A stretch of 33,871 bases of DNA from a virus (IMGVR_UViG_2579778856_000005); one strand, 5' to 3'. Positions 1 through 19,410 are shown, numbered from the stretch's first letter. Notes: generated by a model from the letters alone, not told the origin. Made by a program: numbers and translations.

Positions 1-1284
1 ATGGAATCCCTAACGTTACAACCCATCGCTCGTGTCGATGGCACTATTAATCTGCCCGGTTCCAAGAGCGTTTCTAACCGCGCTTTATTGCTGGCGGCAT
101 TAGCACACGGCAAAACAGTATTAACCAATCTGCTGGATAGCGATGACGTGCGCCATATGCTGAATGCATTAACAGCGTTAGGGGTAAGCTATACGCTTTC
201 AGCCGATCGTACGCGTTGCGAAATTATCGGTAACGGTGGTCCATTACACGCAGAAAGTGCCCGGGAGTTGTTCCTCGGTAACGCCGGAACGGCAATGCGT
301 CCGCTGGCGGCAGCACTTTGCCTGGGTAGCAATGATATTGTACTGAGCGGTGAACCGCGAATGAAAGAACGCCCGATTGGTCATCTGGTGGATGCGCTGC
401 GCCAGGGCGGGGCGAAGATCACTTACCTGGAACAAGAAAATTATCCGCCATTGCGTTTACAGGGCGGCTTTACTGGCGGCAACGTTGATGTTGATGGCTC
501 CGTTTCCAGCCAGTTCCTCACCGCACTGTTAATGACTGCGCCTCTTGCGCCGGAAGATACGGTGATTCGTATTAAAGGCGATCTGGTTTCTAAACCTTAT
601 ATCGATATCACCCTCAATCTGATGAAGACGTTTGGTGTTGAAATTGAAAATCAGCACTATCAACAATTTGTCGTAAAAGGGGGGCAGTCTTACCAGTCTC
701 CGGGCACTTATTTGGTTGAAGGCGATGCATCTTCGGCTTCTTATTTCCTGGCAGCAGCAGCAATCAGAGGCGGCACTGTAAAAGTGACCGGCATTGGACG
801 CAACAGTATGCAGGGTGATATTCGCTTTGCTGATGTTCTGGAAAAAATGGGCGCGACCATTTGCTGGGGCGATGATTATATTTCCTGCACGCGTGGTGAA
901 CTGAACGCCATTGATATGGATATGAACCATATTCCCGATGCGGCGATGACCATTGCCACCGCGGCGTTATTTGCAAAAGGCACCACCACGCTGCGCAATA
1001 TCTATAACTGGCGTGTTAAAGAGACCGATCGCCTGTTTGCGATGGCAACAGAACTGCGTAAAGTCGGTGCGGAAGTCGAAGAGGGGCATGATTTCATTCG
1101 CATTACGCCACCGGAAAAACTGAAATTTGCTGAGATCGCCACTTATAATGATCACCGGATGGCGATGTGTTTCTCGCTGGTCGCATTATCAGATACGCCT
1201 GTGACGATTCTTGATCCAAAATGTACCGCTAAAACTTTTCCAGACTATTTCGAGCAATTGGCGCGGATAAGTCAACCCGGCTGA
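1..1284 (+). CDS. aroA: 3-phosphoshikimate 1-carboxyvinyltransferase (EPSP synthase), complete
   Basis: 427-aa ORF beginning [37 protein letters not shown] and ending [13 protein letters not shown]; recalled as near-identical to E. coli K-12 AroA over its full length. Not verified by search. Confidence 0.97.
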
Positions 1285-1329
1285 ATGAATAACGGGCGAT
1301 AACATAGACAATCCTTTCTTTTCAAAGAC

Positions 1330-1357
1330 GTCGGCACATTGCCGGCGTTTTTTTTCG
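1330..1357 (+). terminator. Rho-independent terminator downstream of aroA
   Basis: GC-rich inverted repeat cggca-cat-tgccg followed by a run of eight T (gcgttttttttcgg), about 50 nt after the aroA stop. Confidence 0.55.
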
Positions 1358-1461
1358 GACCTTGTGGGGTATTTTTATTAATGGTAGCGTTAATTATCAA
1401 TGTAACTTGTTGATACATAATGTTTATATATAATTAATCAACGGATGATTCACATGAAGAA

Positions 1462-1537
1462 TGATGCGCCGCGCGATAAATGCACTCTATCTTGTGCGAT
1501 AAATGGCATCCACGCGGCGTTTCATTATTTGAAAAAG
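1462..1537. repeat. Putative prophage terminus with Mu R-end-like transposase-binding repeats
   Basis: TGATGCGCCGCGCGATAAATGCA matches about 17 of 22 positions of the recalled phage Mu right-end terminal sequence (TGAAGCGGCGCACGAAAAACGC). Further CGATAAATG and GCGTTTCATTATTTGAAAAAG motifs follow. Recall-based, not verified. Confidence 0.45.
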
Positions 1538-1539
1538 AA

Positions 1540-2112
1540 TTACATTTCAGGTTGCGTTATGACAGTCCCAACAGGGTGATAGCGGTAGATCGTTGACAGT
1601 CCAATATCATAGATAATTGCCAGCCGCTTTCTGTCATACCCTTTCTGGAGCAATCTTGCGATCTGCTCATGCTGCTCCTTCGTCAGTTTCGGGCGACGTC
1701 CTCCAACTCTTCCTTGTGCTCGCGCAGCAGCCAGTCCAGCCAGCGTGCGCTCAACTATCAGTTCACGCTCCATTTCTGCCAGTGCACCCATCATATGAAA
1801 AAAGAACCTTCCCATCGGAGTGCTGGTATCGATTGAATCCGTCAGACTGCGAAAATTGACACCTTTTGCGCGTAGCTCTTCTGTGAGAGCAATGAGGTGT
1901 TTCATTCTTCTACCCAACCGATCCAGCTTCCAGACCACCAATGTATCCCCTCTTTTAAGGCACTTTAAAGCGCGTTTCAGGCCTGGTCGTTCCGACTTGG
2001 TTCCGCTCATTTTGTCCTCAAAAATCTGTTCACATCCTGCGCACATTAATGCATTGCGTTGCAAATCTGTGTTTTGGTCATTTGTTGACACACGTATGTA
2101 GCCAATCAGCAT
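1540..2112 (-). CDS. Serine DNA invertase, Pin/Gin/Cin/Hin family
   Basis: 190 aa from the internal ATG (MLIGYIRVSTNDQNTDLQRNAL...), with the catalytic Ser in the YxRVST motif and a C-terminal HTH. Strongly resembles e14 Pin and Mu Gin as recalled. The track ORF extends 43 codons upstream without an obvious start signal; an AAGGGAG RBS precedes the ATG at 2112. Confidence 0.92.
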   Translation of the reverse strand: MLIGYIRVSTNDQNTDLQRNALMCAGCEQIFEDKMSGTKSERPGLKRALKCLKRGDTLVVWKLDRLGRRMKHLIALTEELRAKGVNFRSLTDSIDTSTPMGRFFFHMMGALAEMERELIVERTLAGLAAARAQGRVGGRRPKLTKEQHEQIARLLQKGYDRKRLAIIYDIGLSTIYRYHPVGTVITQPEM

Positions 2113-2168
2113 TAAAAATACTCCCTTTTGAGTGGTTAAAGTACTGAGATAATGTGGGGAGGATTTGA

Positions 2169-2193
2169 GAGATAAACGTTGGTTTGGGGGAAG
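2169..2193 (+). other. Crossover site A (gix/cix-like) in front of cassette 1
   Basis: AGATAAACG-TT-GGTTTGGGGGAAGG. The half-site on the complementary strand (TTCCCCCAAACC) fits the invertase half-site consensus TTnTCnnAAACC, with a 2-bp core TT. Confidence 0.6.
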
Positions 2194-2612
2194 GCTCTGC
2201 ATTGCCTGTTGGTGTGCCTGTTCCATGGCCCACCGCCACACCGCCAGCAGGCTGGTTAAAGTGCGACGGGCGCGCCTTTACAAAAGAACAATATCCTGTT
2301 CTGGCCAGAGTCTACCCGACCCTCCGTCTTCCCGATTTACGCGGTGAGTTTATCCGTGGATGGGACGACGGGCGAAAAGTGGATACAGGGCGCGATCTGC
2401 TTTCACGGCAGGATGGTACAAGTTTTTCTCATTACGCAGGTAATTTTGACATTGGGTCTGGTCATTCAATCAATAACTATGACCAAATCGTTGACAACCA
2501 ACCTGGATTCTCCCGTTTTTCATTTGCAGGTCCTTCGCGAGGCGATGGGGTTAATTATGTGACCATTCGTCCCCGTAACATTGCGTTTAATTACATCGTA
2601 AGGGCGGCATAG
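2184..2612 (+). CDS. Silent tail-fibre C-terminal cassette 1 (promoterless, no ATG; collar-like conserved block plus variable tip)
   Basis: Open frame starting inside the crossover site. Encodes GEGSALPVGVPVPWPTATPPAGWLKCDGRAF...LPDLRGEFIRGWDDGRKVDTGR, then a unique ~58-aa tip, then the conserved end RPRNIAFNYIVRAA. Confidence 0.75.
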   Translation: MGEGSALPVGVPVPWPTATPPAGWLKCDGRAFTKEQYPVLARVYPTLRLPDLRGEFIRGWDDGRKVDTGRDLLSRQDGTSFSHYAGNFDIGSGHSINNYDQIVDNQPGFSRFSFAGPSRGDGVNYVTIRPRNIAFNYIVRAA

Positions 2613-2633
2613 AAACGTTGGTTTAGGAGAAGG
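2608..2633 (+). other. Crossover site B in front of cassette 2
   Basis: CATAGAAACG-TT-GGTTTAGGAGAAGG; same architecture as site A, with the conserved half abutting the repeated coding block. Confidence 0.6.
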
Positions 2634-2652
2634 CTCGGCGCTACCCGTTGGT

Positions 2653-3126
2653 GTGCCTGTTCCGTGGCCCACCGCCACACCGCCAGCAGGCTGGTTAAAG
2701 TGCGACGGGCGCGCCTTTACAAAAGAACAATATCCTGTTCTGGCCAGAGTCTACCCGACCCTCCGTCTTCCCGATTTGCGCGGTGAGTTTATCCGTGGAT
2801 GGGACGACGGGCGCAAAGTTGATACGGGGCGTTCATTGCTAAGTGGTCAGGCTGCAACATTTATTCGTACAGCTTTGCAGGATTATTACGGTTACGATCT
2901 GAATACTAATGTCAAAGTAGGTATCGCTTTTGCTACTGCTGATTCTGTTATAACCGTTGGAAACCCAGCTAATCCTAAAGCAGGAAATAATAGCGATTAT
3001 GTTCCTGCATCAGCAGATAACTCTATAACGGGTATTCAAAGGACAGCGGAGGATAATTTTACCGGGGCATGGATATCAATGCGCCCCCGCAATGTTGCGT
3101 TTAATTACATCGTAAGGGCCGCATAA
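2653..3126 (+). CDS. Silent tail-fibre C-terminal cassette 2
   Basis: The frame is open from just after the cassette-1 stop through the site (..RNVGLGEGSALPVGVPVPWP..). Same conserved block, unique AT-rich ~82-aa tip, same C-terminal RPRNVAFNYIVRAA. No ATG or RBS. Confidence 0.75.
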   Translation: MPVPWPTATPPAGWLKCDGRAFTKEQYPVLARVYPTLRLPDLRGEFIRGWDDGRKVDTGRSLLSGQAATFIRTALQDYYGYDLNTNVKVGIAFATADSVITVGNPANPKAGNNSDYVPASADNSITGIQRTAEDNFTGAWISMRPRNVAFNYIVRAA

Positions 3127-3147
3127 AAACGTTGGTTTAGGAGAAGG
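3122..3147 (+). other. Crossover site C in front of cassette 3
   Basis: CATAAAAACG-TT-GGTTTAGGAGAAGG. Confidence 0.6.
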
Positions 3148-3166
3148 CTCGGCGCTACCCGTTGGT

Positions 3167-3598
3167 GTGCCTGTTCCGTGGCCCACCGCCACACCGCCAG
3201 CAGGCTGGTTAAAGTGCGACGGGCGCGCCTTTACAAAAGAACAATATCCTGTTCTGGTCAGAGTCTACCCGACCCTCCGTCTTCCCGATTTGCGCGGTGA
3301 GTTTATCCGTGGATGGGACGGTGGTCGCAAGGTTGATACCGGGCGTGCGCTACTTTCATTTCAGGAAGGGACTATCGTATCCGGTTTTGATGATAATGAT
3401 ACCGGAGATATCAGTTCGCTCGGCTCTACACAATACGGATTTGGTGACGCTTTAACCTCTAATCAACTGGGGGTCTTAAATGGCAAAAAGTGGATATTTG
3501 ATGCATCCTCTAAAGGTGCACAAAGATATGACTGGTGGGCTTATGTATCAGCTCGCCCCCGCAATATCGCATTTAACTATATCGTGAGGGCGGCGTGA
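3167..3598 (+). CDS. Silent tail-fibre C-terminal cassette 3
   Basis: Same conserved block, unique ~70-aa tip, C-terminal RPRNIAFNYIVRAA. Confidence 0.75.
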   Translation: MPVPWPTATPPAGWLKCDGRAFTKEQYPVLVRVYPTLRLPDLRGEFIRGWDGGRKVDTGRALLSFQEGTIVSGFDDNDTGDISSLGSTQYGFGDALTSNQLGVLNGKKWIFDASSKGAQRYDWWAYVSARPRNIAFNYIVRAA

Positions 3599-3604
3599 TA
3601 CCGT

Positions 3605-4219
3605 TCAGCCGGCAAGCGCCAGTGGCGCTTCCGGCCAGCTGATTTCAGGTGCCTTGCTGATATCCAGTGCGTTCAGCTCGTCGATATAATCCAGCACGGC
3701 GTTCAGTTTTGCCGTTTCTTCTGGTTTCAGACTGCGACCAGCACGCAGTTTGAGGTTGATAAGATCGACGGACGCCATCGCCTGTTTCACCCGTTGCTGG
3801 CGTTGCTGTCTGGCAACCTCCAGTTCTGCGGCTCGCTGCCGTTCAGTATCGGTTACCCACGCCTCACCGTTCCAGGTATCCCATGGCGTGGCTGGCTGTT
3901 TTGTGGTGGTGTCCGCCGGGTAATCACCCGGTTGGGTAATCAGAACGGGGTTACCGTTCTCCGTGCTGTATACCGTCTCGCCGCGGTGATCAGGCACATG
4001 CTCCCACCCGTTCAGCGTGGCAGTCCGGCAAACCACGTAACCCGAAATTGCTTCCGGCGGTGCATCGGCGCACGAATGTGCCGGAGTACCCACCCCAAGG
4101 GCGAGATACTCCACAGAGGATGAGGTGTATTCCCGGGTTTCCTCGTCATAGTGATATACAGTGATATCGCCCGCTACAGTGGCGATACCGTTTTCATCCA
4201 GAACTGCAGTGTTACTCAT
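3605..4219 (-). CDS. Tail fibre assembly protein (Tfa family)
   Basis: 204 aa immediately downstream of the fibre gene (TAATG overlap). GEAWV motif and C-terminal LNAVLDYIDELNALDISKAPEISWPEAP, typical of lambda Tfa / Mu U-type chaperones. Confidence 0.85.
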   Translation of the reverse strand: MSNTAVLDENGIATVAGDITVYHYDEETREYTSSSVEYLALGVGTPAHSCADAPPEAISGYVVCRTATLNGWEHVPDHRGETVYSTENGNPVLITQPGDYPADTTTKQPATPWDTWNGEAWVTDTERQRAAELEVARQQRQQRVKQAMASVDLINLKLRAGRSLKPEETAKLNAVLDYIDELNALDISKAPEISWPEAPLALAG

Positions 4220-5550
4220 TAAACTGCCCTCACAATGTAATTAAGTGCAATGCTACGGGGTCTGACAGTGATACCCTTCGCATACCCGCTTCTGATAGAG
4301 GTCAGAATAGTAGCCTGCATACCATTGTCTGACATTGCCACGACAGGATCGCTGAATGTTGTCCCGTCCGGCATTTTAAAGCTGCCCTCACGAAGGTCTG
4401 TAATGGAATCTTCATTGTTGAATCCCATGCCGACTATCCCCGAGGTTCCCGTAGTGTCCTGGTTATAATAATCCAGCATTGCTGTTCTTAACAGCGTTGC
4501 CCCTTGTGCGGACAGCAACTTACGTCCTGTATCAACTTTGCGCCCGTCGTCCCATCCACGGATAAACTCACCGCGTAAATCGGGAAGACGGAGGGTCGGG
4601 TAGACTCTGGCCAGAACAGGATATTGTTCTTTTGTAAAGGCGCGCCCGTCGCACTTTAACCAGCCTGCTGGCGGTGTGGCAGTGGGCCACGGAACAGGTA
4701 CACCAACGGGCAGCGCCGAGCCTTCCCCCAAACCAAGGTAATTGAGGACATCTTTTATACTGCCCTTAGCGATAATAGCGCGACCAATAGCTGTAAGGGT
4801 TGCCAGCTCTGCGCGGTCTGCTCCGGTAAAATAAGGCAACCGATCTGCTGCAGTGGCAAGTCCTGCCAGAGCAGTGAGCGTGGCATCTGCCGGTTGTTTT
4901 CCGTTTGCCAGATCGTATGCAGCCTTGACCGCTTTCGGTGTGGCGGCCAGTATTTCAGACGTGCTGTTGATGGCACTGCTCAATTGTACGGTGCCTTTTG
5001 CCGTCAGCGAGGCAGCAGGCACTCCCGTTATCTGACTCCACGGGTGAGTGTGGCTGACGGGCGCCTTGCCGGCTGCAAGGTCGTATGCAGCCTTGACCGC
5101 CTTCGGCGTGGCAGCCTCAGTTTCTGATTGACTGTCCGTGGCGCTGCTCAGTTGTACGGTGCCTTTTGCCGTCAGTGAAGCCGCAGGCACTCCCGTTATC
5201 TGACTCCACGGGTGAGTGTGGCTGGCAGGCGCCTTGCCGGCTGCCAGGTCGTATGCAGCCTTGACCGCTTTTGGTGTGGCGGCCAGCGTTTCAGAGGTGC
5301 TGTTGGTGGCACTGCTCAGTTGGGTGAACCCCTTAGCTGTCAGTGTCGCGTCCGGGTGGTTACGGGAACGTACGTGTTCAGCCAGTGACTGTGCGGCTTC
5401 CTCCGTTTTCTTCTTCAGCCATTTCGTCCTGTTTGCCAGTTGCCGGGGGGCTCGATTTGATATCCCGTCTGCACCACCCAGAACCGGATCTGATGTCTCC
5501 AGTTGATAGATATTTTCTTCCCACTTTTCTGTTTCATTCAGGTTTCCCAT
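4219..5550 (-). CDS. Tail fibre protein (currently expressed copy)
   Basis: 443 aa from the ATG at 5550 (GGGAG RBS). Shaft repeats (TAKGTVQLSSA..ETEAATPKAVKAAYDLA..SHTHPWSQITGVPA). The C-terminal third carries the same collar-like block as the three cassettes and ends RPRSIALNYIVRAV. Confidence 0.9.
   Translation of the reverse strand: MGNLNETEKWEENIYQLETSDPVLGGADGISNRAPRQLANRTKWLKKKTEEAAQSLAEHVRSRNHPDATLTAKGFTQLSSATNSTSETLAATPKAVKAAYDLAAGKAPASHTHPWSQITGVPAASLTAKGTVQLSSATDSQSETEAATPKAVKAAYDLAAGKAPVSHTHPWSQITGVPAASLTAKGTVQLSSAINSTSEILAATPKAVKAAYDLANGKQPADATLTALAGLATAADRLPYFTGADRAELATLTAIGRAIIAKGSIKDVLNYLGLGEGSALPVGVPVPWPTATPPAGWLKCDGRAFTKEQYPVLARVYPTLRLPDLRGEFIRGWDDGRKVDTGRKLLSAQGATLLRTAMLDYYNQDTTGTSGIVGMGFNNEDSITDLREGSFKMPDGTTFSDPVVAMSDNGMQATILTSIRSGYAKGITVRPRSIALNYIVRAV
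4716..4745 (-). other. Crossover site D inside the expressed fibre gene (inverted relative to A-C)
   Basis: Reverse complement reads AATTACC-TT-GGTTTGGGGGAAGG. The conserved half is identical to site A; the site spans codons N-Y-L-G-L-G-E-G at the constant/variable boundary. Confidence 0.6.
4880..5340. repeat. About 170-bp in-frame tandem repeats (three copies) in the tail-fibre shaft
   Basis: gtcgtatgcagccttgaccgc recurs at ~4920, ~5090 and ~5258; the protein motif TAKGTVQLSSA...AATPKAVKAAYDLAAGK..SHTHPWSQITGVPAASL is repeated. Confidence 0.6.
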
Positions 5551-5552
5551 AA

Positions 5553-6131
5553 TCAACTGCTCCCGTGGTTATAACTGCCATCATGGATGGCGGTATTGTT
5601 ATAGCGAATGGCCACAGACTGATACTCCAGGCTGGCCAGATGGCAGCGGGCCGGTGCAAATGCAGCGAGCGTCTGACGCAGCATCGCGGCCTGATCGTTA
5701 GTAATGGGCTGTTTCAGAATAACGCGATAAACCGCCCAGGCGGCTGCATCTCCATGAACAAACAGTCCGTTATAGCTGCGATTGCCGTCGTAACTGAGAC
5801 GACCTGTGCCTTCAATCAGATCCACTTCACCAAAGCCAAAACGGCGGATAACTTCCCGGATTGACCACGGCGTCCCTTTATACCGGTGCAGTTCGATGGC
5901 TGCTTTTATAAGCATGCGGCGAACATCGTCCGATTCCGCCAGCTCCCAGCCATCGCCAGACAGTGAGAACTGCTCGCCCAGCCATGGCAGCGCGGAACTG
6001 TCGACGATATCGACGAGAAAGACCATCAGTACGCTCAGGTCGATGTTATCCAGCCGCCCTGCCAGTCTTCCCAGCGTCCTGAGACTGATATCACCCTCAA
6101 GCGGTGGCGGGAGTTGTAATGGCTCAGTCAT
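5553..6131 (-). CDS. Baseplate/tail protein, P2 gpI-like (Mu gp48-like)
   Basis: 192 aa from an ATG overlapping the upstream stop; sits between the J-like gene and the tail fibre. Family assignment by position and recall. Confidence 0.7.
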   Translation of the reverse strand: MTEPLQLPPPLEGDISLRTLGRLAGRLDNIDLSVLMVFLVDIVDSSALPWLGEQFSLSGDGWELAESDDVRRMLIKAAIELHRYKGTPWSIREVIRRFGFGEVDLIEGTGRLSYDGNRSYNGLFVHGDAAAWAVYRVILKQPITNDQAAMLRQTLAAFAPARCHLASLEYQSVAIRYNNTAIHDGSYNHGSS

Positions 6132-7227
6132 CAGACACTCCACTCATGTTAAGTGTGATCGCCGTACAGTTTGCCCATTCGTTTTCTGCCACCACCCGCA
6201 GTGCCGGTGTCACCAGTTCAACCTGGTACACCCCGGAAACGGACAATGCACTGATAATCTGGCTGGGGACAATATCACGCCCCAGCGTGGCGGCACGTGA
6301 TGCCACCCAGTTCTGTATGGCGCTGTTAGCGGCATCTTTTACAGACCTGGCATCCTGATCACGATAGATCGTAATCCTGGCTTCAATGGTGTAATCCACC
6401 TTCACTGGTGTTTTAGCCCGCACTGTATCAGTGAGTGGCCTGACTTTCTCATCAGAGCAGAAACTCTCTACCAGCGTGAGAACACCGCCGTCCGGCAGAC
6501 CGGTACTGAGCAGCGGATACAGATCTACGGTCCCGGGAACCGGGGAAAGCACAGCAACATCGACAATGTTGGGATGGGCCTGCATGGCATGAAAGCGGTA
6601 TGCGCCACGGCTTCCGGCATTGGTGAATGACTCCGGGGCCAGCCTGATACGCTCCCGGAGCCTGTCATCGTCTTCCTGTTCTGAACCGCCGGAACTGGCC
6701 ATCAGATTGCTCACCAGCAGGTTAACGTTATCAATCTCATCGAGTAACTGACTGACCTGCGCAGGTTGCCAGCCGTTACCAGCGGTACCGGGTTCGGTAC
6801 AGGTGGACGTGACATTGACCAGCAGCAATCCGGCCTTCAGTACCACATCTGTATCGGTGGCAAAAATAACGCTGTCGGAAGCGCTGACGCGGGTGCCTGC
6901 CGGGATCAGCACATCAATGGCCAGTGCCTCATCTACGGAGAACTGGAGCGTGGTGGTGGCAGGCTGCGCGGCAAGACGGTATACACCGACCAGTTCACCG
7001 AGGTAATCAATCATCGGCTCACGGGCAAAGGCGACCAGATTCTGCTTTGCTGCCTCCTGTACCGCAACCCTGACCAGCATTTCGCGATAGGCCCACAGAT
7101 CAATCAGCAGACGTTCTGCCTGTGCCGGGTACAGCGTTTTGCCGGTATCCGCTTCATACTTCGCAATCATTTCTGCCGTGATTTTGTCGGCATCGCGTTC
7201 AATAAAATCGGGTTCTGTCAGCGCCAT
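6124..7227 (-). CDS. Baseplate J-like protein (Mu gp47 / P2 gpJ family)
   Basis: 367 aa; AGGAG RBS; classic position between the W-like and I-like genes. Confidence 0.85.
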   Translation of the reverse strand: MALTEPDFIERDADKITAEMIAKYEADTGKTLYPAQAERLLIDLWAYREMLVRVAVQEAAKQNLVAFAREPMIDYLGELVGVYRLAAQPATTTLQFSVDEALAIDVLIPAGTRVSASDSVIFATDTDVVLKAGLLLVNVTSTCTEPGTAGNGWQPAQVSQLLDEIDNVNLLVSNLMASSGGSEQEDDDRLRERIRLAPESFTNAGSRGAYRFHAMQAHPNIVDVAVLSPVPGTVDLYPLLSTGLPDGGVLTLVESFCSDEKVRPLTDTVRAKTPVKVDYTIEARITIYRDQDARSVKDAANSAIQNWVASRAATLGRDIVPSQIISALSVSGVYQVELVTPALRVVAENEWANCTAITLNMSGVSDD

Positions 7228-7565
7228 AGCAGCTCCTGAGTCCGGGTCTGTCCGTCTGAGCCTTTCCAGCTCACCCGGAGCGTAAGATGTTCGCCGTCGA
7301 CGGCGGGTTTAACTGACATAAGCTGGCAGCGGGGCTCCCAGCGCCGGATGGCATCGACGGATTCGCGCACCACATGCGGAATGGCCCGGTCTACAGGCCA
7401 GTCGATATAAAGATGCAGATTGCTGCCGAACTCCGGGCGATGCGGGTCGCTGCCGCGGGGAGTCCGCAGGATAATTTGAATCGCCTGCCGGATATCATCC
7501 AGCCCCCGGACAATTTCGCCGGGAGCCTGCAGGGCTGGTTGCCAGAATACTGAGGTTGTTTTCAT
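7218..7565 (-). CDS. Baseplate wedge protein, gpW/gp25-like (Mu gp46)
   Basis: 115 aa, the size and position of GPW/gp25 family proteins. Confidence 0.8.
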   Translation of the reverse strand: MKTTSVFWQPALQAPGEIVRGLDDIRQAIQIILRTPRGSDPHRPEFGSNLHLYIDWPVDRAIPHVVRESVDAIRRWEPRCQLMSVKPAVDGEHLTLRVSWKGSDGQTRTQELLWR

Positions 7566-7619
7566 GGGGGCAGTATTGCCCCCGTGCGGGAACGCTGATA
7601 TTAAAGGCGTTTAAAAAGC

Positions 7620-8216
7620 TCAGTGGGAGTGGTGGCTGGAGTTTTCGCCATCAGACAACATACTGCCCGTGGCATGGACATTCCCTTTAATCTCGATATT
7701 GCCATGGATGGTCGCGGTAACACCTTCACCACCAGAACCCGCCATGCCTCCTTCGTAAATCAGCTTACCCCTGACACGCAGATCTCCGGTAAGTTCGGTT
7801 TCCGGTGCGTCAATCGTGGCTTTCTGTGTTTTCAATACCACATCAGCACCACACTCAATGACAATATGCTCAATGCCGCCCCGGATGATCAGAGTGTGCG
7901 TCTTCCGGTTGTAGCTGTACTCTGCACCATCAGCAAACCGGGTTCCCCGGATATTTTTGTCACTGAACGGTGGTTTATCGACGTCTGAATACACCGCGCC
8001 CAGAATAACACCATCCTCGCCGTTGGCATCGAGCAGCACCTCAACCTGCTCCCCCACGTCAGGGAGCCAGTAATCTTTGTTATCCTGGGTATTGCGCTGC
8101 AGCACGTTAAGCCAGTTTGTGCGCAGGTTATCGCATTCAGGCAGACGAACGCGGGCCTGAACCCTGTCGGCATCAACGGCACTGACCGTACCGACCTGAC
8201 GAGTGACACCAGTCAT
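7620..8216 (-). CDS. Baseplate assembly / spike protein, gpV-like (Mu gp45)
   Basis: 198 aa with a Gly-rich C-terminus; ATGA overlap with the upstream gene. Confidence 0.8.
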   Translation of the reverse strand: MTGVTRQVGTVSAVDADRVQARVRLPECDNLRTNWLNVLQRNTQDNKDYWLPDVGEQVEVLLDANGEDGVILGAVYSDVDKPPFSDKNIRGTRFADGAEYSYNRKTHTLIIRGGIEHIVIECGADVVLKTQKATIDAPETELTGDLRVRGKLIYEGGMAGSGGEGVTATIHGNIEIKGNVHATGSMLSDGENSSHHSH

Positions 8217-9367
8217 TTTTTCTTCTCCTTAATCACCGTCGATGTACTGCCATCCGGGTGATAAACCGTGAGTTTCTGAGTTTTTTGTTTTTTCCCTCTT
8301 GTGACTGGCCCCCGTGCCACTTCCAGCTCTGTGGTGTAGCCGCTGTTACGGTCAAACGCATGGCGGGCAGTGGTTATGAGCCATGGCCCGGATAACTGCC
8401 CAAAACTCACCAGTTCAATTTTGTTGCCTGCTGTCAGTTGAGGTGTTCCCGTCAGCGTCAGGGAGCCGTTCTGCTGGTATTCGTTATGTCTGGCCAGTGC
8501 TGAATCCGCTTTAATCCGGGCACTGTCCGGGTCGCTGACGCGGCTGTTAACTTTAAGTGAGTCAGCGCTGGTAACCTTACCACCTTTGAGCTTTTTGTCG
8601 CTTTCACGGGTACCACCATCAGCTTCGTAGACGATCAGTTTTTTACTGCTGCTTTTCTGGTGTTTTACCTTTGCAGATTTATAGACCCGGTTGATGGTGT
8701 CACGCAGGGAAAAGCGGGCCACATCCTGCGGTTTTAACTGCCTGACCGGCTCCTGACTGCGCAGTGTGGCCAGATGAGAAAAAATCAGCTGGTCACTGAC
8801 CACTTTCACTGCATAACCATACTCGCTGGCCAGCCGGCGCAGAAAACCCACGTCGGTTTCAGCATACTGGGTCACCCGGTCGATTCTGATGGACTCAATG
8901 CTGCCCACCAGTTTCAGCCGGTGCTTTCTGGCAATCCGCCCCGCAACAGCTGCCAGCGTGGTGTTCTCAAAACCACGACTGGTTTTAGTCCGCAGGGCAC
9001 TGTTAACCGAGGTGGCCACCCCACGGATAGAAACAACGGAAGCGGGCGAACTCACTTCGATCTCGTCTATAGAGAACGTACCGCAGGACAGCAGCTTCTC
9101 GCCCTGATAGCCCATTTTCAGCGTCAGCGTGTCACCCTTGCCCGGATACCATTTATCCAGCCAGCGGCCATCGGTGTCGTCCAGCTCCACCTCAATGGTA
9201 TCGGACTCATTTTTGATGTTATCGCTCCAGGTCACACGGGTGACATAAGGCGCGATATCAGAGGTGATGTTTTTCTGCAGATACCACAGAGTGAACACCG
9301 GTGTCAGCACATCGCTGACGCCGGTTAACGCTGATGTGACTTGCGCAGTGCTGTTTATCTCAGCCAT
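8213..9367 (-). CDS. Tail/baseplate hub protein, P2 gpD-like (Mu gp44)
   Basis: 384 aa between the X-like and V-like genes. Confidence 0.8.
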   Translation of the reverse strand: MAEINSTAQVTSALTGVSDVLTPVFTLWYLQKNITSDIAPYVTRVTWSDNIKNESDTIEVELDDTDGRWLDKWYPGKGDTLTLKMGYQGEKLLSCGTFSIDEIEVSSPASVVSIRGVATSVNSALRTKTSRGFENTTLAAVAGRIARKHRLKLVGSIESIRIDRVTQYAETDVGFLRRLASEYGYAVKVVSDQLIFSHLATLRSQEPVRQLKPQDVARFSLRDTINRVYKSAKVKHQKSSSKKLIVYEADGGTRESDKKLKGGKVTSADSLKVNSRVSDPDSARIKADSALARHNEYQQNGSLTLTGTPQLTAGNKIELVSFGQLSGPWLITTARHAFDRNSGYTTELEVARGPVTRGKKQKTQKLTVYHPDGSTSTVIKEKKK

Positions 9368-9567: not shown

Positions 9568-10451
9568 CACACACTCCTCGTCAGTATTCTGGCGGCCATT
9601 GCACTTAATCCCGGAGACATGCGGTTGAATGCTGTTCCGACGGCGTTAAGCTGCCCGGAAACGGTATCCAGAGCACCTGCAATATTTCTTTTGTCCACAC
9701 CACTCAGCGCAGACTGTGCCTGCTGTACATACGTGGCTGCTTCGCTGGCTGTTCTGGCCAGACTGATGGCATCGGGCATGGATTCAGAGAGTGCGTTAAA
9801 CGCCGGAACACTTTTCCCCAGAGCCCCGGAGATATTACCCAGTCCGCTCATCAGCCCCGGCACACGGGTCAGTGCGACAACGGGGTTATCCTTCATTTTC
9901 TGTGTCACCCGAACGGCGCTGATAGTGGTCTGGAGTACAGACTGCGCCTGTTTCGCATAGTTGACGCCGTTGCGGATGAACTGCGCCACCCCTGAAGGTG
10001 AAGGTATGGCACCGGAGACCGCCCCGACACCCGGGAGCTTCGTGCGTATTGCCGGTGGTTGCAGAGGATTTTTCGGGTCACCGGTGTATTCCCGGAGAGA
10101 CACGGTGGCACTGACAGCCAGCACGTTGCCGGTACTGTCAGTCTGCTCGCTGGTTGCAGTCACATCGGTGATCACGAACCAGCCGCGATAGTCACCGTTG
10201 CCGAAGACCAGCGCCAGTGCCTGATGGGCTTTCATGGCTGTTCGCAGTCTCGCCAGCTCCACATCGGGTACACAATAATGCTGATGGAAAACCAGAGTTA
10301 TCTGGATTTCGTCCAGCCTGTCGCCGACGAACTGCAGACCAGGCTTACCCCCGATGCGGGCATGCTCCGCATAATCGACGCCGAACGTGGCCTCGAAGCC
10401 GTCCCAGTAGGTAATCAGCTCAAACTCAATATCACCCAGTACGGCAAACAT
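9567..10451 (-). CDS. Tail protein with P2 gpU-like N-terminal domain and a long Ala/Ser-rich C-terminal extension
   Basis: 294 aa; the N-terminal ~125 aa (GKPGLQFVG..ITL..ALALVFGNGDYRGWFVITDVTATSEQ) resembles the gpU tail-terminator family. Intact only in this copy. Confidence 0.7.
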   Translation of the reverse strand: MFAVLGDIEFELITYWDGFEATFGVDYAEHARIGGKPGLQFVGDRLDEIQITLVFHQHYCVPDVELARLRTAMKAHQALALVFGNGDYRGWFVITDVTATSEQTDSTGNVLAVSATVSLREYTGDPKNPLQPPAIRTKLPGVGAVSGAIPSPSGVAQFIRNGVNYAKQAQSVLQTTISAVRVTQKMKDNPVVALTRVPGLMSGLGNISGALGKSVPAFNALSESMPDAISLARTASEAATYVQQAQSALSGVDKRNIAGALDTVSGQLNAVGTAFNRMSPGLSAMAARILTRSV

Positions 10452-13402
10452 CAGCGGTACTCCTTACGTTGTTTCTGAGCCAGCAGACGCTCCAGCATTT
10501 TTTCCAGCTCATGCAGACTCATATTCAGGGCACCAGTCAGTCCTGCAGGCGCTGTGGTTTCCCTGCCATTGAGGAAAAACTGAGGATTAAAGCTGACCTG
10601 GATACCACCAGACGTTCCACCGCCGGTTGCAGCTGCACCACGGCCTGAATATCCGGCAGCCAGGATTTCAGGCGAGGGGATACGGGGAACATCCGGTGTC
10701 ATCTCATTTGCCAGACGTTGCCCTGGTAAAATCGATGCCCGGGTGGAGAGCGGAATAGCGGGCATGGAAGACAAACTATTGATTACGGCTCCGATCGCAT
10801 TTTTAGCAGACGACATAAACCCATTGATATCGGGCAACGGCATACTGAAGCGAACACCTGAAGTGTTATCCCGTATTTCTGGCCCCTGAATGCTCACGGG
10901 CATTCTGGGGAGCAGTTCACTGGCCATTCGCTGCCCGGCCAGAGCTGCAAGCGGAGTGGTCCGCTGCAGGCCAATGGCGGCCCCCTGCGCGATATTGTCA
11001 CCAAAGCCCATAAACACGCGGCTCGGCGAATGAATGCCCAGCTTTTCGCTGAACCAGCCACTGATGCTGTCACCCATTCCGGTTACACTGGATTTGAGCG
11101 ACTCCCATTTGTTTTTGATACCGTTAATCAGACCGTCGACAAGATGGCCACCGAAGTCGGTGAACTTTGCCGGCAGATCAACACCAAGATATTTCAGCGC
11201 AGCTGCAAAGGCTTTATAGAGCAGACCTGCCGGCGACCAGTTAATCAGCAGCTTACCAGTTCCCGCGATACCGCCGTTAAAGGCTTCCTGAATGTCAGCC
11301 CAGCACTGTTTAAACCAGCTACTGATGCTGTCACCCATTCCGGTTACACTGGATTTGAGCGACCCCCATTTGTTTTTGATACCGTTAATCAGACCGTCGA
11401 TAAGATGGCCACCGAAGTCGGTGAACTTTGCCGGCAGAGCAACGCCGAAATATTTCAGCGCAGCCGCAAAGGCTTTATAGAGCAGGCCTGCCGGCGACCA
11501 GTTAATCAGCAACTTACCAATTCCCACAATGCCGCCGTTAAAGGCTTCCTGAATGTCAGCCCAGCGCTGTTTAAACCAACCACTGACAGCCCCCCAGTTG
11601 CGGTAGATAAGGTAAGCTGCTGTCGCGACAGCGGTGATAACGAGACCGATGGGATTCATCATCAGCGCTCGCCCAATCCAGAGAACGGCACGTGCAGCGC
11701 TCATAAAACCGCGAACGAGGCTGCCCGCCAGAACTTTGCTGAGTTTCAGTCCTCCGCTGGTCAGTCGGCTGAATCCAGTGACAAGCCAGCGTAATTTGCC
11801 ACCTTCTCCGAGTGCGGTAGTCAGTCGATGCCAGTTGGTCCGGAGTAAAACAGTAGTTTTCCAGACGTTCACAAAGGGGGAAATAAGGAGATTCAGCCCC
11901 AGTTTGAGACCAATAGTCGCTATCTTAATCGCAAGGAGCGCACTGATGAGCTTAAAAGCCCCACTGACAAATTGCGGGTGAGTCGCTACCCAGTGTTTTG
12001 TCCCCTGAATGAGTGGGAGCAGTTCCTGAGTCAGAGAAATAAAAGATGGAGCTAATTGATCGCCCAGCGTAATTGCCAGATCGCGACTGCTGACCATAAG
12101 TGTTTTAGTGGCTTCAAGGGGAGATTTCAGCCGCTGATCATAAGCACTGGCAAGCAAATCGTTATCCGCAGCCCTGAGAGCACCGGCACGGATCTCTCGA
12201 TATCTGTCCATGTTGGCCAGCATCGGGCGGATAAATGCCATGACCTGCATATCCGCGAACATATCGCCCAGACCAAAGTTTTTCGCCAGAGCCTGAAGTG
12301 CCTCATCTCTTGCCGTATCATTCTTTATTTTCATGGCTGATTTGAAGCCGGCCAGCGCTTCGGGGCTTTTGGCATTGAGGTAACGTTCTATAACACTCAA
12401 CATCCCTTCAATCGGAGAGATCCCCGCAGCTTTATAACTCGCAATAGATCCCTGCAAATCAATACCCAGATCAGCAAACTGTTTCTGAGTATCGCGGGCA
12501 AAAATTTTGGTAAGAAAGTTTTTAAAATTATTGGCTGCTTCGTCGGTGGAACCTGCACCGATTTTTGCTATCTGGAGACTGGCCCCGATTTCAGCAACAG
12601 CCTCTTTTCCACTGGCAATACCCGCCATCATTGGGGCCAGGGACTGCATCCACTTGACCTGATCCGGGATTTCAAATGACCCCTGGTCACCGGCATAAGC
12701 CATAATATTCTGAACGGCACCAAAATCTCTGGCCGCGCCTTTCAGGGAGTTTTGCCAGACTGCGGCCACTTTTGCCCAGTCCTGAGCAGACGTGCGTGTT
12801 GCCGTTGCCGCGCGGGCAATATCCGGCATCAGAAAACCGATATCTGACACATTATCAATATTGTCGCTGATGAGTGAACCCACCGCCTCCTGCAGCTCAT
12901 CCTGATACTGATTGTATTTAAGCGCCCAGCCTTTTATCTGTCCGGCAAGTGCATCCCGCGTTTTATTGTCATATTTTGCGGTGATCGACATATCAATCAT
13001 TTTGTCCTGAAAAGACATGGACTGCTGAACGGCAGGGGAAACCGTATGATAAACAGTCTGTGCCATGCCATACGCTTCAATCCCCTGACCATACAGCGCC
13101 ATGCGGTTAGCTTTCAGCGCATCACTGGTAGCGGATGCCGCTGACAGACGGCGCTGCTGGCGCTCAATTTGCTCCATGGTGCGGCTTACCCGCAGCAGCT
13201 CGCTGTTGAGATGCTGCATCCGGGAAGAACCCAGTTGACCATAACGTTCTGTTGCACGGGTTAAAGCGTTCTGACGTTCCTGCAGGCGGCGTGAGGTATC
13301 GCTCAGGGAATCAAGCGCACGGCGGGTACCGCTCATTGCAGAACGGAATGTGCTGCCAATCATCCCGCCGATAACAACGCCGACTGAAAACTGTCCCGAC
13401 AT
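10451..13402 (-). CDS. Tail tape measure protein (copy 1)
   Basis: 983 aa, N-terminal coiled coil, internal 86-aa tandem repeat, GGAGG RBS. Confidence 0.9.
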   Translation of the reverse strand: MSGQFSVGVVIGGMIGSTFRSAMSGTRRALDSLSDTSRRLQERQNALTRATERYGQLGSSRMQHLNSELLRVSRTMEQIERQQRRLSAASATSDALKANRMALYGQGIEAYGMAQTVYHTVSPAVQQSMSFQDKMIDMSITAKYDNKTRDALAGQIKGWALKYNQYQDELQEAVGSLISDNIDNVSDIGFLMPDIARAATATRTSAQDWAKVAAVWQNSLKGAARDFGAVQNIMAYAGDQGSFEIPDQVKWMQSLAPMMAGIASGKEAVAEIGASLQIAKIGAGSTDEAANNFKNFLTKIFARDTQKQFADLGIDLQGSIASYKAAGISPIEGMLSVIERYLNAKSPEALAGFKSAMKIKNDTARDEALQALAKNFGLGDMFADMQVMAFIRPMLANMDRYREIRAGALRAADNDLLASAYDQRLKSPLEATKTLMVSSRDLAITLGDQLAPSFISLTQELLPLIQGTKHWVATHPQFVSGAFKLISALLAIKIATIGLKLGLNLLISPFVNVWKTTVLLRTNWHRLTTALGEGGKLRWLVTGFSRLTSGGLKLSKVLAGSLVRGFMSAARAVLWIGRALMMNPIGLVITAVATAAYLIYRNWGAVSGWFKQRWADIQEAFNGGIVGIGKLLINWSPAGLLYKAFAAALKYFGVALPAKFTDFGGHLIDGLINGIKNKWGSLKSSVTGMGDSISSWFKQCWADIQEAFNGGIAGTGKLLINWSPAGLLYKAFAAALKYLGVDLPAKFTDFGGHLVDGLINGIKNKWESLKSSVTGMGDSISGWFSEKLGIHSPSRVFMGFGDNIAQGAAIGLQRTTPLAALAGQRMASELLPRMPVSIQGPEIRDNTSGVRFSMPLPDINGFMSSAKNAIGAVINSLSSMPAIPLSTRASILPGQRLANEMTPDVPRIPSPEILAAGYSGRGAAATGGGTSGGIQVSFNPQFFLNGRETTAPAGLTGALNMSLHELEKMLERLLAQKQRKEYR
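11040..11585. repeat. 258-bp in-frame tandem repeat inside the tape measure gene (two full copies plus a partial third)
   Basis: ccagc(c/t)actgatgctgtcacccattccggttacactggatttgagcga recurs at 11055 and 11313; the protein repeat is WFKQ(R/C)WADIQEAFNGG...SVTGMGDSIS. Confidence 0.8.
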
Positions 13403-13477
13403 AGTGGTTAACCTCCGGGGAAGGTGAAAAGACGTGAGGGGATAACGCAGAACAGCCGCTACTGGCGGCTGTCTGTA

Positions 13478-13895
13478 CTATGATTTGTCGCCGTACTCGC
13501 TTTTGATTTGCTCTTCAGCCTGCTCCAGCCACATCTCCAGATCGTCAGTATCGAGGGCATCAATCTCCCCCGGCTGAAACCGGAACCATCTCGCCAGCAG
13601 CCCCTGCGCCTGCGTCAGCGCCCTGGTTGCTCTCACCCATCCCCGTGATGAGCTGAAATCGTTTCTGTAACTGCAGGTAATCAGCCAGATCCATATTGTC
13701 GAGATCTTCCGGGAGAAGACCAGTACTGCGGGCAATCAGCGGTTCGTCCCAGTCTGCCGGGTTTTTGCTGATTTTGCGCACCTGCTTCAGGTCTTTTACC
13801 GTCAGGCGTTTCAGTTCAACCAGCTCAATTCTGGTGCCTGCAGCAGTGGTGAAGGGATAAGACAATTTAAAAGTATCGGATGGGGTCTGTGACAT
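13478..13895 (-). CDS. Tail assembly chaperone, putative frameshifted long form (GT / E+E' analogue)
   Basis: A second ORF (13478-13735) overlaps the 3' end of the chaperone ORF in the +1 (equivalently -2) frame and extends it by ~28 aa of plausible protein sequence (..IDALDTDDLEMWLEQAEEQIKSEYGDKS). Confidence 0.5.
13560..13895 (-). CDS. Tail assembly chaperone (lambda G / P2 E analogue), short form
   Basis: 111 aa, acidic, between tube and tape measure; AGGAG RBS. Confidence 0.8.
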   Translation of the reverse strand: MSQTPSDTFKLSYPFTTAAGTRIELVELKRLTVKDLKQVRKISKNPADWDEPLIARSTGLLPEDLDNMDLADYLQLQKRFQLITGMGESNQGADAGAGAAGEMVPVSAGGD

Positions 13896-13949
13896 GATTG
13901 TGCTCCTGTGTAAGTTCAGGGCAGTATGTCGGGAGAAGCGCGTGACGGA

Positions 13950-13990
13950 TATTAAAGGAGATTAAGAAGAAGGGGCCGGAGCCCCTGTGA
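13950..13990 (-). terminator. Putative intrinsic terminator/attenuator between tube region and chaperone
   Basis: Perfect palindrome AGGGGC-CGGA-GCCCCT (13971-13986) followed on the minus-strand transcript by a T-rich run (ttcttcttaatctccttt). Confidence 0.5.
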
Positions 13991-13992
13991 TG

Positions 13993-14274
13993 TCAGCAAG
14001 TGCGAAACCCCTTGCAGTTACGCAGGAAAGCGATGAGAAGCGTCTTTCCCTCAGATTTGCCGATGCCGGAGAACCAGTGGTCGGGAGGCTCCCATGCTTC
14101 AATCAAATCCGCCAGTTTGCGGGCCTTTGAACGTGTGCAGTCAATCGGGTCATTGGTTTTACGGGTATTAAAAAGGGTTTCCACCCCCGGAATATCAAGG
14201 AGGGTAAACCACGTACCATTTGACATGCCCAGTGCCGCACATCGTCCTCCTTTATCCGTCAGTTCAACACTCAC
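13993..14274 (-). CDS. Hypothetical small protein between tube and chaperone
   Basis: 93-codon open frame in a 380-bp gap; start codon ambiguous (GTG at 14274, or an internal ATG with a distant AAGGAGGA). Confidence 0.35.
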   Translation of the reverse strand: MSVELTDKGGRCAALGMSNGTWFTLLDIPGVETLFNTRKTNDPIDCTRSKARKLADLIEAWEPPDHWFSGIGKSEGKTLLIAFLRNCKGFRTC

Positions 14275-14276
14275 CG

Positions 14277-14798
14277 TCAGCCCCCGATATTGATACGGTA
14301 GTCAGTCAGTTGATCAACACCGCCGACCCGGAAGATGTTGGCCAGATAGTCCAGTTGCAGCAGCTCTTCACCATCCAGTACCTGTCTGATATACGTGCAG
14401 GTGAAGCTACTGGAGAACTCGGCGTTCTCGTGCTGTTTGAACGTCCCCAGCGGGTTCTTCTTGAACATAATCGTCAGGAAGGTGACCAGCGGGATTTCGT
14501 CAATCAGCCCCTGCGAGCTGTAGCGCTGGACGCTGGAACGACACTGCAGTGCCAGCGACCTGTACGGGTTCGCGGCAGACAGCATCGCATCGCGGTAAAA
14601 GCTGTTCCATTTGATTTCGCCTTCCAGCTTGTCAAAACCAGCCGGGAGTTCCACCTTACCCACCATCCCCAGCGCCTTGTGTTCCTGCATAATCATGGAG
14701 ACATCGGGGAGTTTAACTTCCTCAGCCCGTCCCAGCAGGTTAGTACCATCCAGATAGATGTTGGCATTCGTGATGCGGTTTATCTCAATCTTTGACAT
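14277..14798 (-). CDS. Tail tube protein (copy 1)
   Basis: 173 aa, ATGA overlap with the sheath stop; contractile-tail tube family by size and position. Confidence 0.9.
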   Translation of the reverse strand: MSKIEINRITNANIYLDGTNLLGRAEEVKLPDVSMIMQEHKALGMVGKVELPAGFDKLEGEIKWNSFYRDAMLSAANPYRSLALQCRSSVQRYSSQGLIDEIPLVTFLTIMFKKNPLGTFKQHENAEFSSSFTCTYIRQVLDGEELLQLDYLANIFRVGGVDQLTDYRINIGG

Positions 14799-16089
14799 CA
14801 GTTGCCCCCTTTCAGGGTTAACAGGTATTCCGAGGTGATCTCAGTCTCAAACGTCAGTCGCTCCAGCGGCGGTGGTGGCGTATATTTGTAGCTCAGCAAC
14901 AGGTGCCCGGCGGCCAGCTCCGTCTCCGGATTGCGGGCCGGATCAAACCAGCAACGGAAGCCCAGTACCGCACCATCACCAGTCATTTTGCGACCGTAGG
15001 CGTTGACCGACTCCGTCAGTGCATCAATCAGCGCCTGAGTAATCGGCATGTCGATGTACTGCTGGCTGAAATAACGAATGGACTCGTTGATCACATCACC
15101 GGTGCGGCGAACGTTCTCAAAGTTACGCATATGGGTGACCGTTGGCCATGCTGCCGTCCGGTTACCCCACAGACGAAGGCCGCTGCCGTAACTGCTGAAT
15201 ACCGTGGTGATCCCCTGTTCGTTAAGCAGGTTCACCTCACTCTGCGGGTCATCAATCATCGCGGACAGCTGGCGCTCCACGCCGGTGATCCCCAGAATCT
15301 CCTGATTGGAGGATGACCACCAGTAGCCCTTGTCCAGATCGACTCTGGCACGCAGACCTGCTGCACGCTGGCTGAGCGGCTCCAGACGCTCTGTGTTTGT
15401 CACCGGGTCATATACCTTCACATGCGGATAGCACAGACGGACGCGGTCGGAGCTGGTATTGAAGTTGATGGTGCCTTCCGGGCCACGACCTGCCAGAGCC
15501 TGTGCAAAGGTGGTACCGACAGGCGCATCAATGTAGGTTACCGCGCCCAGCTTCTCTGCCATGGCGATAAGCTCAACTGCGACACTCTTCTGGGTGCAGA
15601 ACACCGGCGCAATCAGAATTTTGGCGAAATAGCCGTACAGGTTGAAGCTGTCGTTAAGCAGCTTCATGCCGGTTCGGTTTCCGGCGCTGTTCACCCCGCC
15701 GATGATGTCCGCCGCAGTCACCTTCGACGGGTCCGCGTACTCATAGCTCACCTTCACGCTGCCACCGGCCTCAATAGCCTTGCCCAGGTTCGTGAGCACA
15801 CCCGCCTGCGCATCAACACGGTAGTCCGTGTTCGCCGTGTGGGTGGTGCTGCCTTCACTGTTTTTCACCACCACATTAGCGACAACCGGATGCGCCAGTC
15901 TGGCCTGCCCTGTCGATTTGTCAAAGGTAACCACCTCATCCTCGATCGCCGTTTTATGTTTCGCCGGGTCGAGGACGTTAATGACCAGAACGGTGCCTGC
16001 ACCATGGTCATAAATCGCATCCAGCGCCTGCGGAATGGTAAAGCCGGTGAACTGGCTGCCAAATGCCGCTGCGTCTTTCTCAGACAGGC
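14798..16089 (-). pseudogene. Tail sheath protein, 5'-truncated fragment (lacks ~45 N-terminal codons)
   Basis: Matches the intact sheath at 20649-22076 up to the duplication junction at 16089, then reads into out-of-frame U-derived sequence. Confidence 0.8.
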
Positions 16090-19253: not shown

Positions 19254-19410
19254 AGTGGTTAACCTCCGGGGAAGGTGAAAAGACGTGAGGGGATAACGCA
19301 GAACAGCCGCTACTGGCGGCTGTCTGTACTATGATTTGTCGCCGTACTCGCTTTTGATTTGCTCTTCAGCCTGCTCCAGCCACATCTCCAGATCGTCAGT
19401 ATCGAGGGCA

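Follow-up and report, generated by a model that had tools for sequence, protein, structure and literature searches.

At the left end of IMGVR_UViG_2579778856_000005, a viral DNA stretch of 33,871 nt (the window hereafter means this stretch at its full length, with coordinates counted from its first letter), a tail-fibre gene, a single tail-fibre assembly gene (tfa) and a DNA invertase gene lie together with three silent fibre-tip cassettes. There is good support for this region being a multiple-inversion host-range switch of the Min/p15B type that offers four alternative tips (A to D), and for its position at the right end of a transposable, BcepMu-like Escherichia coli prophage. The locus does not form a new class; it is a known kind of host-range device. 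Its single-tfa design, however, is real and conserved, and the accessible literature passes over it without comment. A first-pass annotation of the sequence had noted four tips, one tfa and a C-terminal motif common to all tips, which open reading frame (ORF) calls, Pfam and the sequence itself bear out; its placement of tfa within the invertible interval, adjoining the expressed tip D, likewise agrees with the ORFs and with the four crossover sites (Table 1). Taken as a whole, our account of the locus (an active switch, tips built on a split collar domain, tfa as a passenger of tip D, and a leaning towards Tfa being dispensable for the remaining tips) is, on balance, probably the right one.

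The enzyme encoded beside the array, with an N-terminal catalytic domain and a C-terminal helix-turn-helix, is 76% identical to Gin of phage Mu over 181 amino acids (PDB 4M6F, E = 2e-93) and shares 84% identity with its counterpart in p15B-Min-like P1 plasmids. The 5' part of the invertase gene is where systems of this family have a Fis-dependent recombinational enhancer; here, its first 210 nt share 78% nucleotide identity with gin. The crossover-site pattern AAACNTTGGTTTRGGRGAAGG has exactly four matches, at 2174, 2613 and 3127 on the plus strand and at 4721-4741 on the minus strand, with none expected from shuffled sequences; site d is the sole one on the minus strand. These sites have the core AAAC-NN-GGTTT known from Mu gix, are imperfectly palindromic, stand in inverted orientation and mark the junction between constant and variable parts of the gene. 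The crossover site beside the invertase is kept in six lineages. A Gin-like serine invertase recombines any oppositely oriented pair among the four sites, and in this way one or another of the tips A-D becomes fused to the constant part of the fibre.

We enumerated the states that can be reached by inversion between oppositely oriented sites and obtained 4, 12 and 240 states for three, four and six sites, respectively, the last number being that of the isomers of the six-site Min region of p15B. The window array, composed of one double-ended segment (tip C converging on tfa and tip D) and two single-ended cassettes without tfa (A and B), has 12 isomers. Tips D and C are expressed in two of these each, with tfa downstream in both D isomers and convergent in both C isomers, and tips A and B in four each, tfa being co-oriented in two and opposed in two. 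Overall, 6 of the 12 isomers have tfa and the fibre in the same orientation. This qualifies the earlier claim that any inversion between D and A, B or C uncouples tfa from the newly expressed fibre: one such step does flip tfa, but two steps can bring A or B into expression with D-tfa co-oriented downstream (the state deposited, with tip A, for genomes of the sequence type 131 (ST131) kind), and C alone is always convergent.

Public assemblies attest to these states. The inversion system is active, not decayed, because all four isomers predicted for a three-tip version of the array (A, C and D) are found in independent assemblies, their DNA being otherwise identical. In this version, the fibre constant part (Sc) is followed by D-tfa (loci L004 and L008), by C with tfa opposed (L005 and L006), by A and then C with tfa opposed (L009 and L010), or by A and then D-tfa (L002, L003 and L011-L013, from ST131-type genomes). 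Across the related loci, tip A is fused to the constant part in L002 and L009-L013, a B-type tip adjoins it in L020, and tip C is in the expressed state in L005, L006, L025 and L028. Counted from locus maps with the constant part visible, tfa is co-oriented with the fibre in about 14 related loci and opposed in about 9.

Some copies of the array show peculiarities of their own. Insertions of the IS66 family (insertion sequence) sit inside the invertible array of L006, L007 and the hit H2, where they disrupt cassette A or part the fibre from its tips. In L017 (IMGVR_UViG_2654587728_000014, ~3700-8700), a D-tfa/C segment lies between two different, facing fibre constant parts with no invertase between them, which could mean that an invertase has recombined sites belonging to two prophages, or that the contig is chimeric. 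Besides, L061 from Salmonella Typhi (CIPB01000001.1, 5876-7979) has a tip-tfa segment converging on a tip-fibre segment in a different tail backbone; its invertase is a 31-amino-acid remnant, and the tfa-opposed state is apparently locked.

Cognate tfa genes elsewhere in the prophage, which the first-pass annotation had named as the finding that would speak against a lone chaperone gene, did not turn up: tblastn found no second tfa in the window (best match E = 2.8), and the near-identical, annotated prophage of E. coli AR_451, between aroA and ycaL, has none either, with one tail fiber assembly protein annotated. Relatives were drawn chiefly from a viral collection and from exact-protein look-ups; the Tfa scan of genome contigs returned one short contig only. 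The exact Tfa protein is widespread in public assemblies. Every related array has exactly one intact tfa (L024 with an extra partial copy), together with one to eight further cassettes that lack it. The plasmid pMCR_SCKP-LL83 has nine tips and a single tfaE; its invertible segment is reported to be 99% identical to p15B min at 92% coverage (PMC5786510). Part of such an array is matched by 250 plasmid records, and the cassette types A, B and C of the window recur in P1-like arrays. The combination of a single tfa with many tips is conserved, and p15B-like P1 plasmids reach nine tips.

Within this design, the partner of tfa does not vary. The gene lies directly downstream of a D-type tip in 27 of 27 cases (the BcepMu-like prophage and a second backbone), of tip c3 in 12 of 12 P1-like phage-plasmids, where Tfa is 55% identical, and of tip c12 in both of two non-invertible loci, where it is 88% identical. 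The tip upstream of tfa is constant within each Tfa lineage, and each lineage has its own Tfa variant. The tip that converges on tfa varies among arrays (C, c6, c4 or c11), is intact in all ~40 loci sampled for these four families and, in the case of type C, is also found as an ordinary cassette (L040). In the window, the ATG of tfa overlaps the fibre stop codon (TAATG), and its Shine-Dalgarno sequence, GAGGG, falls within the codons for the end of tip D. Because of the invariant D-tfa pairing, the lineage-specific variants and the overlapping stop and start codons, we assign Tfa to D, of which its gene is a fixed passenger. A higher variability of the Tfa N-domain than of the C-domain between lineages was considered and rejected (51-53% vs. 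54-62%), and there was no sign of tip-specific N-domain divergence within the Tfas of collar tips.

The tips themselves share an architecture. All four have a Collar domain (PF07484, E = 6.5e-16 to 6.9e-15) and end in the 14-residue pattern RPR(N/S)(I/V)A(F/L)NYIVRA(A/V), which reads RPRNIAFNYIVRAA in A and C, RPRNVAFNYIVRAA in B and RPRSIALNYIVRAV in D. In pairwise comparison, 68-70 of the first 70 residues and 10-14 of the last 14 are identical, as against 16-35% of the variable core. The codons of this 14-mer differ at 38-87% of synonymous vs. 0-16% of non-synonymous sites; since the synonymous sites are saturated and the residues kept, it is the peptide that is under selection. The same saturation rules out that the 14-mers are alike through recent gene conversion. 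The coding part of the N-terminal collar has a low synonymous divergence (0.10-0.21), which is compatible with homogenisation among the repeats. When we surveyed 132 tips from ~60 related loci, falling into 15 variable-core families, RPR(N/S)(I/V)A(F/L)NYIVRA terminated the tips of all 15, also where no tfa follows; an Ewingella prophage that has no tfa shows it as well.

A known structure suggests what this ending may do. The tip of T4 gp37 (PDB 2XGF) matches the N-terminal collar part (E = 3.9e-14), and its own C-terminal KNIAFNYIVR aligns with the 14-mer. In gp37, domain D10 consists of residues 811-881 and 1010-1026, with the needle D11 inserted into it (PMC6957217); PMC12724248 agrees on these boundaries. 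From an AlphaFold2 (AF2) monomer of tip C, only the collar and the terminal strand were used: the predicted local distance difference test (pLDDT) is 85-93 for the N-terminal collar part and 87 for the final block, below 50 for the insert and 62 on average, and the terminal strand is modelled at residues 149-153. With this monomer as a query, Foldseek returned 2XGF as the top match (E = 4.4e-6, end to end), followed by T4 gp12. The simplest reading of sequence and model is that the 14-mer would be the strand that closes a split collar domain, and such a role would explain why all tips have it, whether or not a chaperone gene accompanies them. Each tip could then be seen as a miniature version of the T4 gp37 type, in which a variable receptor-binding insert splits the tail-collar domain into two halves, the conserved ~70 N-terminal residues and the C-terminal 14-mer; the latter would be kept in every tip for closing the collar and aligning the three C-termini. 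Among the options that the first-pass annotation saw in the 14-mer was a chaperone dock. This is not supported, given that the 14-mer looks like the C-terminal piece of a gp37-like split collar, occurs in every tip family and is present in the Ewingella prophage that lacks tfa. A Tfa shared by several tips is possible for another reason, namely that the Tfa family is found only next to collar tips.

The tips without a tfa of their own do not look like relics. The ratio of non-synonymous to synonymous polymorphism (pN/pS) is 0.16 for A (7 variants), 0.36 for B and 0.14 for c8 among the tfa-less tips, and 0.60 for C, 0.54 for c6 and 0.30 for c4 among the convergent ones; as a rough estimate, it lies below 1 in most of the sampled tfa-less families with enough substitutions. 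The sequences of window tips A-D contain no His-x-His metal-binding motif, in which they differ from T4 gp37. A single such motif (e.g. SHYH, DHAH or KHRH) stands just after the collar in the tip families c3, c4, c8, c11 and c14 and in the Erwinia fibre (L056), placed like the metal-binding one of gp37.

Whether Tfa serves tips A, B and C is the point on which readings differ most. The one that we favour, with about even confidence, is that Tfa is the predicted cis partner of tip D and that A, B and C assemble without it; in these tips, short inserts and a self-closing collar would keep the chains in register, a task that falls to Tfa or gp38 in longer ones. We lean towards dispensability because no tfa was found in the Ewingella prophage and no phage-borne promoter on the plus strand. 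The Ewingella element is P2-like; one of its tips resembles C (68% identical), the other is B/D-like, and the two stand 98 bp apart with a 215-nt inverted repeat on their flanks. Its late region looks complete, and 14.5 kb of late genes yielded no tfa. As to a plus-strand promoter that could drive the flipped tfa, which the first-pass annotation had envisaged, a sigma-70 scan of 1300-5700, which would miss activator-dependent (Mor/C-type) promoters, detected none inside the prophage (3 hits vs. 4.2 expected), the sole plus-strand hit (1394-1421) being host DNA beyond the prophage end at ~1462. Tips C, c4, c6 and c11 are never co-transcribable with tfa yet intact, which also counts for dispensability. 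Moreover, T4 gp12, a collar fibre, is reported to need gp57A and not gp38, and an intramolecular clamp can free gp37 from its dependence on gp38 (PMC3004832).

Besides the blind spot of the promoter scan, several observations weigh against this reading. The Ewingella prophage may not be functional. C-like tips of Cedecea and Enterobacter (74-77% identical to C) each come with their own Tfa of this family, and both Erwinia tips, on the same tail module, have a Tfa each; judging from these cases, collar tips often keep a chaperone. The Tfa family is conserved over its full length (45-61%) and found beside collar tips only, which would be compatible with a chaperone that recognises the shared collar. 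The AF2 model is a monomer of low confidence in the insert, and tip D has a pN/pS of 2.1, albeit from few substitutions and with estimates that, for all tips, pool non-independent pairs. Two virion-derived, P1-like records, vB_EcoM-813R1 and vB_EcoM-673R5, were considered as a natural test of infectivity with tfa opposed; in 813R1, tfa is opposed to the fibre gene, but both records are fragmented by frameshifts and of uncertain propagation history, and no inference is drawn from them.

A more far-reaching possibility, which we put forward tentatively, is that collar mini-tips are self-chaperoning or, alternatively, that the orientation of tfa acts as a second, hidden switch. In the former case, the split collar would return the three C-termini to the trimer axis, and Tfa would be optional, as an accessory or cap for D only; in the latter, the orientation of the sole tfa would decide whether the chosen tip can assemble at all.

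A serious competitor is a generic Tfa that serves all four tips, its N-domain docking on the shared collar and 14-mer and not on the variable insert, and its supply being ensured in trans from an unrecognised promoter; we consider this possible, if clearly less likely than Tfa being D's partner alone. The full-length relatives of Tfa (45-61%, N-domain included) all adjoin collar tips with unrelated inserts (D, c3, c12, the C-like tips of Cedecea and Enterobacter, two Erwinia tips and the Klebsiella P2-like tip), and Tfas at non-collar tips (Cedecea tfa2, Klebsiella Kp4845-2 tfa2, L046-L051, Mu U/U') share with it the C-terminal domain only or nothing. This agrees with a modular model from the literature, which assigns fibre binding to the N-domain and conservation to the C-domain (PMC9608196). 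Another paper reports that a gp38/Tfa-like gene invariably comes after gp37/Stf-type tips (PMC9659904). The use of the same cassettes A, B and C with two Tfas that share only 55% identity, and the Tfas that accompany the C-like tips of Cedecea and Enterobacter and both Erwinia tips, fit in as well. Yet a generic Tfa has to contend with tfa lying antisense to the late operon in half of the 12 isomers, including all C isomers, with the negative sigma-70 scan inside the prophage and with the Ewingella array that does without the gene; nor would it account for a preceding tip that never changes within a Tfa lineage, or for a 14-mer that is present also where no tfa follows.

If, on the other hand, all tips needed Tfa and the protein were made only in co-orientation, half of the isomers and every C isomer would be fibre-defective, be it as a tolerated cost or as a hidden second layer of phase variation. 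The enumeration of states and the lack of a detectable sigma-70 promoter for the flipped tfa would fit this scenario, as would the usual presence of a Tfa with the collar tips of two-tip relatives and the pN/pS values of convergent tips (C, c6 and c4), which are somewhat above those of A and c8. However, a tip that never works should decay, and the four convergent families are intact across all ~40 loci, type C serves also as an ordinary cassette, and the Ewingella array has no tfa at all; we regard this scenario as improbable. Even less credit is due to partial decay, another of the options raised in the first-pass annotation, whereby A, B and C would be relics whose cognate tfa genes were lost. 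It is true that an Erwinia two-tip relative has one tfa per tip, that tfa genes were probably lost at some point, and that some copies are interrupted by IS66 insertions or frameshifts (L006, L007, L045). But the BcepMu-like prophage, a second backbone and P1-like plasmids all have the one-tfa design (with the 250 plasmid records mentioned above), arrays have up to nine intact tips, all isomers of the three-tip version are observed, the pN/pS of the tfa-less A, B and c8 is 0.14-0.36 and mostly below 1 across families, and the 14-mer is under protein-level selection, all of which contradicts decay and practically excludes it.

By the features tested, the locus belongs with p15B Min (Sandmeier, Iida and Arber, 1990-92), apparently transplanted into a transposable BcepMu-like prophage. 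As in p15B Min, crossover sites mark the 5' ends of the alternative fibre 3' ends and number more than two, and the locus shares with the p15B-like P1/P7 phage-plasmids an invertase of the Gin family (84% identical to that of the P1-like arrays), the collar cassette types A, B and C, and the arrangement of one double-ended segment, which contains the sole tfa, with several tfa-less cassettes. It differs from them in its setting (a BcepMu-like prophage with four tips instead of a P1-like plasmid with 6-9), in its fibre constant part and in its Tfa, which is linked to D, as opposed to the 55% identical one linked to c3. The G segment of Mu with Gin (and likewise C/Cin of P1 and P/Pin of e14) offers the second parallel: beyond the related invertase and the common site core, both systems place the switch where the constant part of the fibre gene meets the variable part, beside the invertase and where the late operon ends. 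Mu, however, has only two sites, and its two tips are paired with a tfa each (S-U, S'-U'), whereas the window exceeds the two sites of the Mu, P1 and e14 segments and provides only one tip with a tfa of its own. Mu S has neither the collar domain nor the 14-mer, both of which the window tips possess, and U and U' show no similarity to the window Tfa that BLASTP would detect. The Erwinia relative keeps the classical layout of two tips and two tfa genes.

With T4 gp37 (2XGF), the window tips have in common the ending ...NIAFNYIVR and, probably, a split, D10-like collar with an inserted receptor-binding part. The gp37 insert is a 128-residue needle, in contrast to 53-81 residues in the window. 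In T4 gp37/gp38, lambda Stf/Tfa and ORF6/ORF5 of the Citrobacter phage PhiNP, a gene of the Tfa/gp38 type lies directly downstream of the tip, as is the case for D; unlike in these systems, three of the four window tips lack a chaperone gene of their own. A gin-dependent switch has also been described in the shufflon of Enterobacter phage FRphi, with three C-terminal fibre isoforms at read fractions of ~50/25/25 and up to six paralogues in relatives, and that report does not mention a chaperone (Nat Microbiol 2026, PMC13418256). These fractions equal the four-state prediction for one single-ended plus one double-ended segment, although FRphi is another type of phage, with cI/cII regulation. 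The R64 shufflon (Rci, pilV) likewise uses multiple inversions to choose one C-terminal adhesin end, yet its recombinase is of the tyrosine type, its adhesin belongs to a pilus and its sites are unrelated, which makes it an analogue and not a homologue.

Tail-fibre tips set the host range of phages and are swapped to retarget phages and tailocins, and in such engineering the cognate Tfa is usually taken along. Across this array and its relatives, the same collar tips occur in four settings, i.e. with their own Tfa, with a shared Tfa, with a Tfa that is only 55% identical, and with none, and the single-tfa design poses a clean experimental question. If it is true that the tfa-less tips fold alone, they would represent compact, chaperone-free plug-in receptor-binding modules of ~140-170 amino acids, bounded by conserved junctions, the crossover site plus collar on one side and the 14-mer on the opposite side. 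Should the self-chaperoning or the hidden-switch reading hold, the array would amount to a natural test bed for Tfa recognition and dispensability. There is a warning for annotation, too, in that E. coli assemblies, including those of ST131, freeze one isomer, and silent cassettes are often called pseudogenes. In L002 and L003 (E. coli AR_451 and GN04171; 3467-5039), RefSeq labels the silent or fused cassettes as pseudogenes ('incomplete; missing N-terminus'), and the fibre gene is split into fragments in these ST131-type genomes, so that the annotation misreads an inversion array.

The features at this end of the window are compiled in Table 1. Copies of the element inserted at different points of the chromosome place the prophage end at ~1462, the host site here being between aroA and ycaL. 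Elsewhere, the same prophage sits near flg, near otsBA and at other sites (L008, L011, L012), with the identical end ...GCGCGGCGCATCA; such varied sites and a constant end sequence would be compatible with a transposable, Mu-like element. The late operon runs leftward on the minus strand, from a gpD-like baseplate gene, V, W, J and I to the fibre gene, tfa and the invertase gene, the last lying downstream of the array and co-directional with the operon. The whole fibre gene (4219-5556, minus strand) comprises the constant part and tip D. The cassettes A, B and C, each with a Collar domain, are promoter-less and lie on the plus strand between tfa and the invertase gene; the stop codons of the convergent cassette C and tfa are 6 nt apart. 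Precomputed domains of Tfa are Caudo_TAP_N and Caudo_TAP.

Table 1. Coordinates of genes, tip cassettes and crossover sites at the left end of the window
Feature	Position	Strand	Basis or remark
aroA	1-1284		window start
Serine DNA invertase, Gin/Cin/Pin/Min family, 190 aa	1540-2112	-	Pfam Resolvase (1.2e-50) and HTH_7
Crossover site a (AAACG TT GGTTTGGGGGAAGG)	2174-2194	+	head of cassette A; pattern search
Silent tip cassette A, collar N-part, 53-aa core	2184-2612	+	14-mer at 2568-2609
Crossover site b	2613-2633	+	pattern search
Silent tip cassette B	2617-3126	+	14-mer at 3082-3123
Crossover site c	3127-3147	+	pattern search
Silent tip cassette C	3131-3598	+	14-mer at 3554-3595
tfa, tail-fibre assembly gene, 204 aa	3605-4219	-	PF02413 (E = 5.6e-27), residues 79-199
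Tip D, fused to the fibre in the window, collar N-part, 81-aa core	4219-4720	-	14-mer at 4222-4263
Crossover site d, fibre constant/variable junction	4721-4741	-	2 mismatches, both on the constant-part side
Fibre constant part (Sc), three Phage_fiber_2 repeats	4742-5556	-	Pfam PF03406 (5.4e-56)

Two repeat structures were seen in addition. The Phage_fiber_2 repeats of the fibre shaft correspond to three tandem 168-nt units at 4898-5401 (tandem family D2); related fibres measure 361-527 amino acids, and shaft length seems to follow the number of these units. Further into the window, 10236-16089 and 16087-21940 form a near-identical tandem duplication of 5,851 bp, which does not occur in the AR_451 sister prophage and may be real or an assembly artefact. 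Included are the gene for the 983-amino-acid tape measure, those for tail assembly and the tube, and part of the sheath gene, of which a truncated copy of 442 amino acids stands beside the one of 475.

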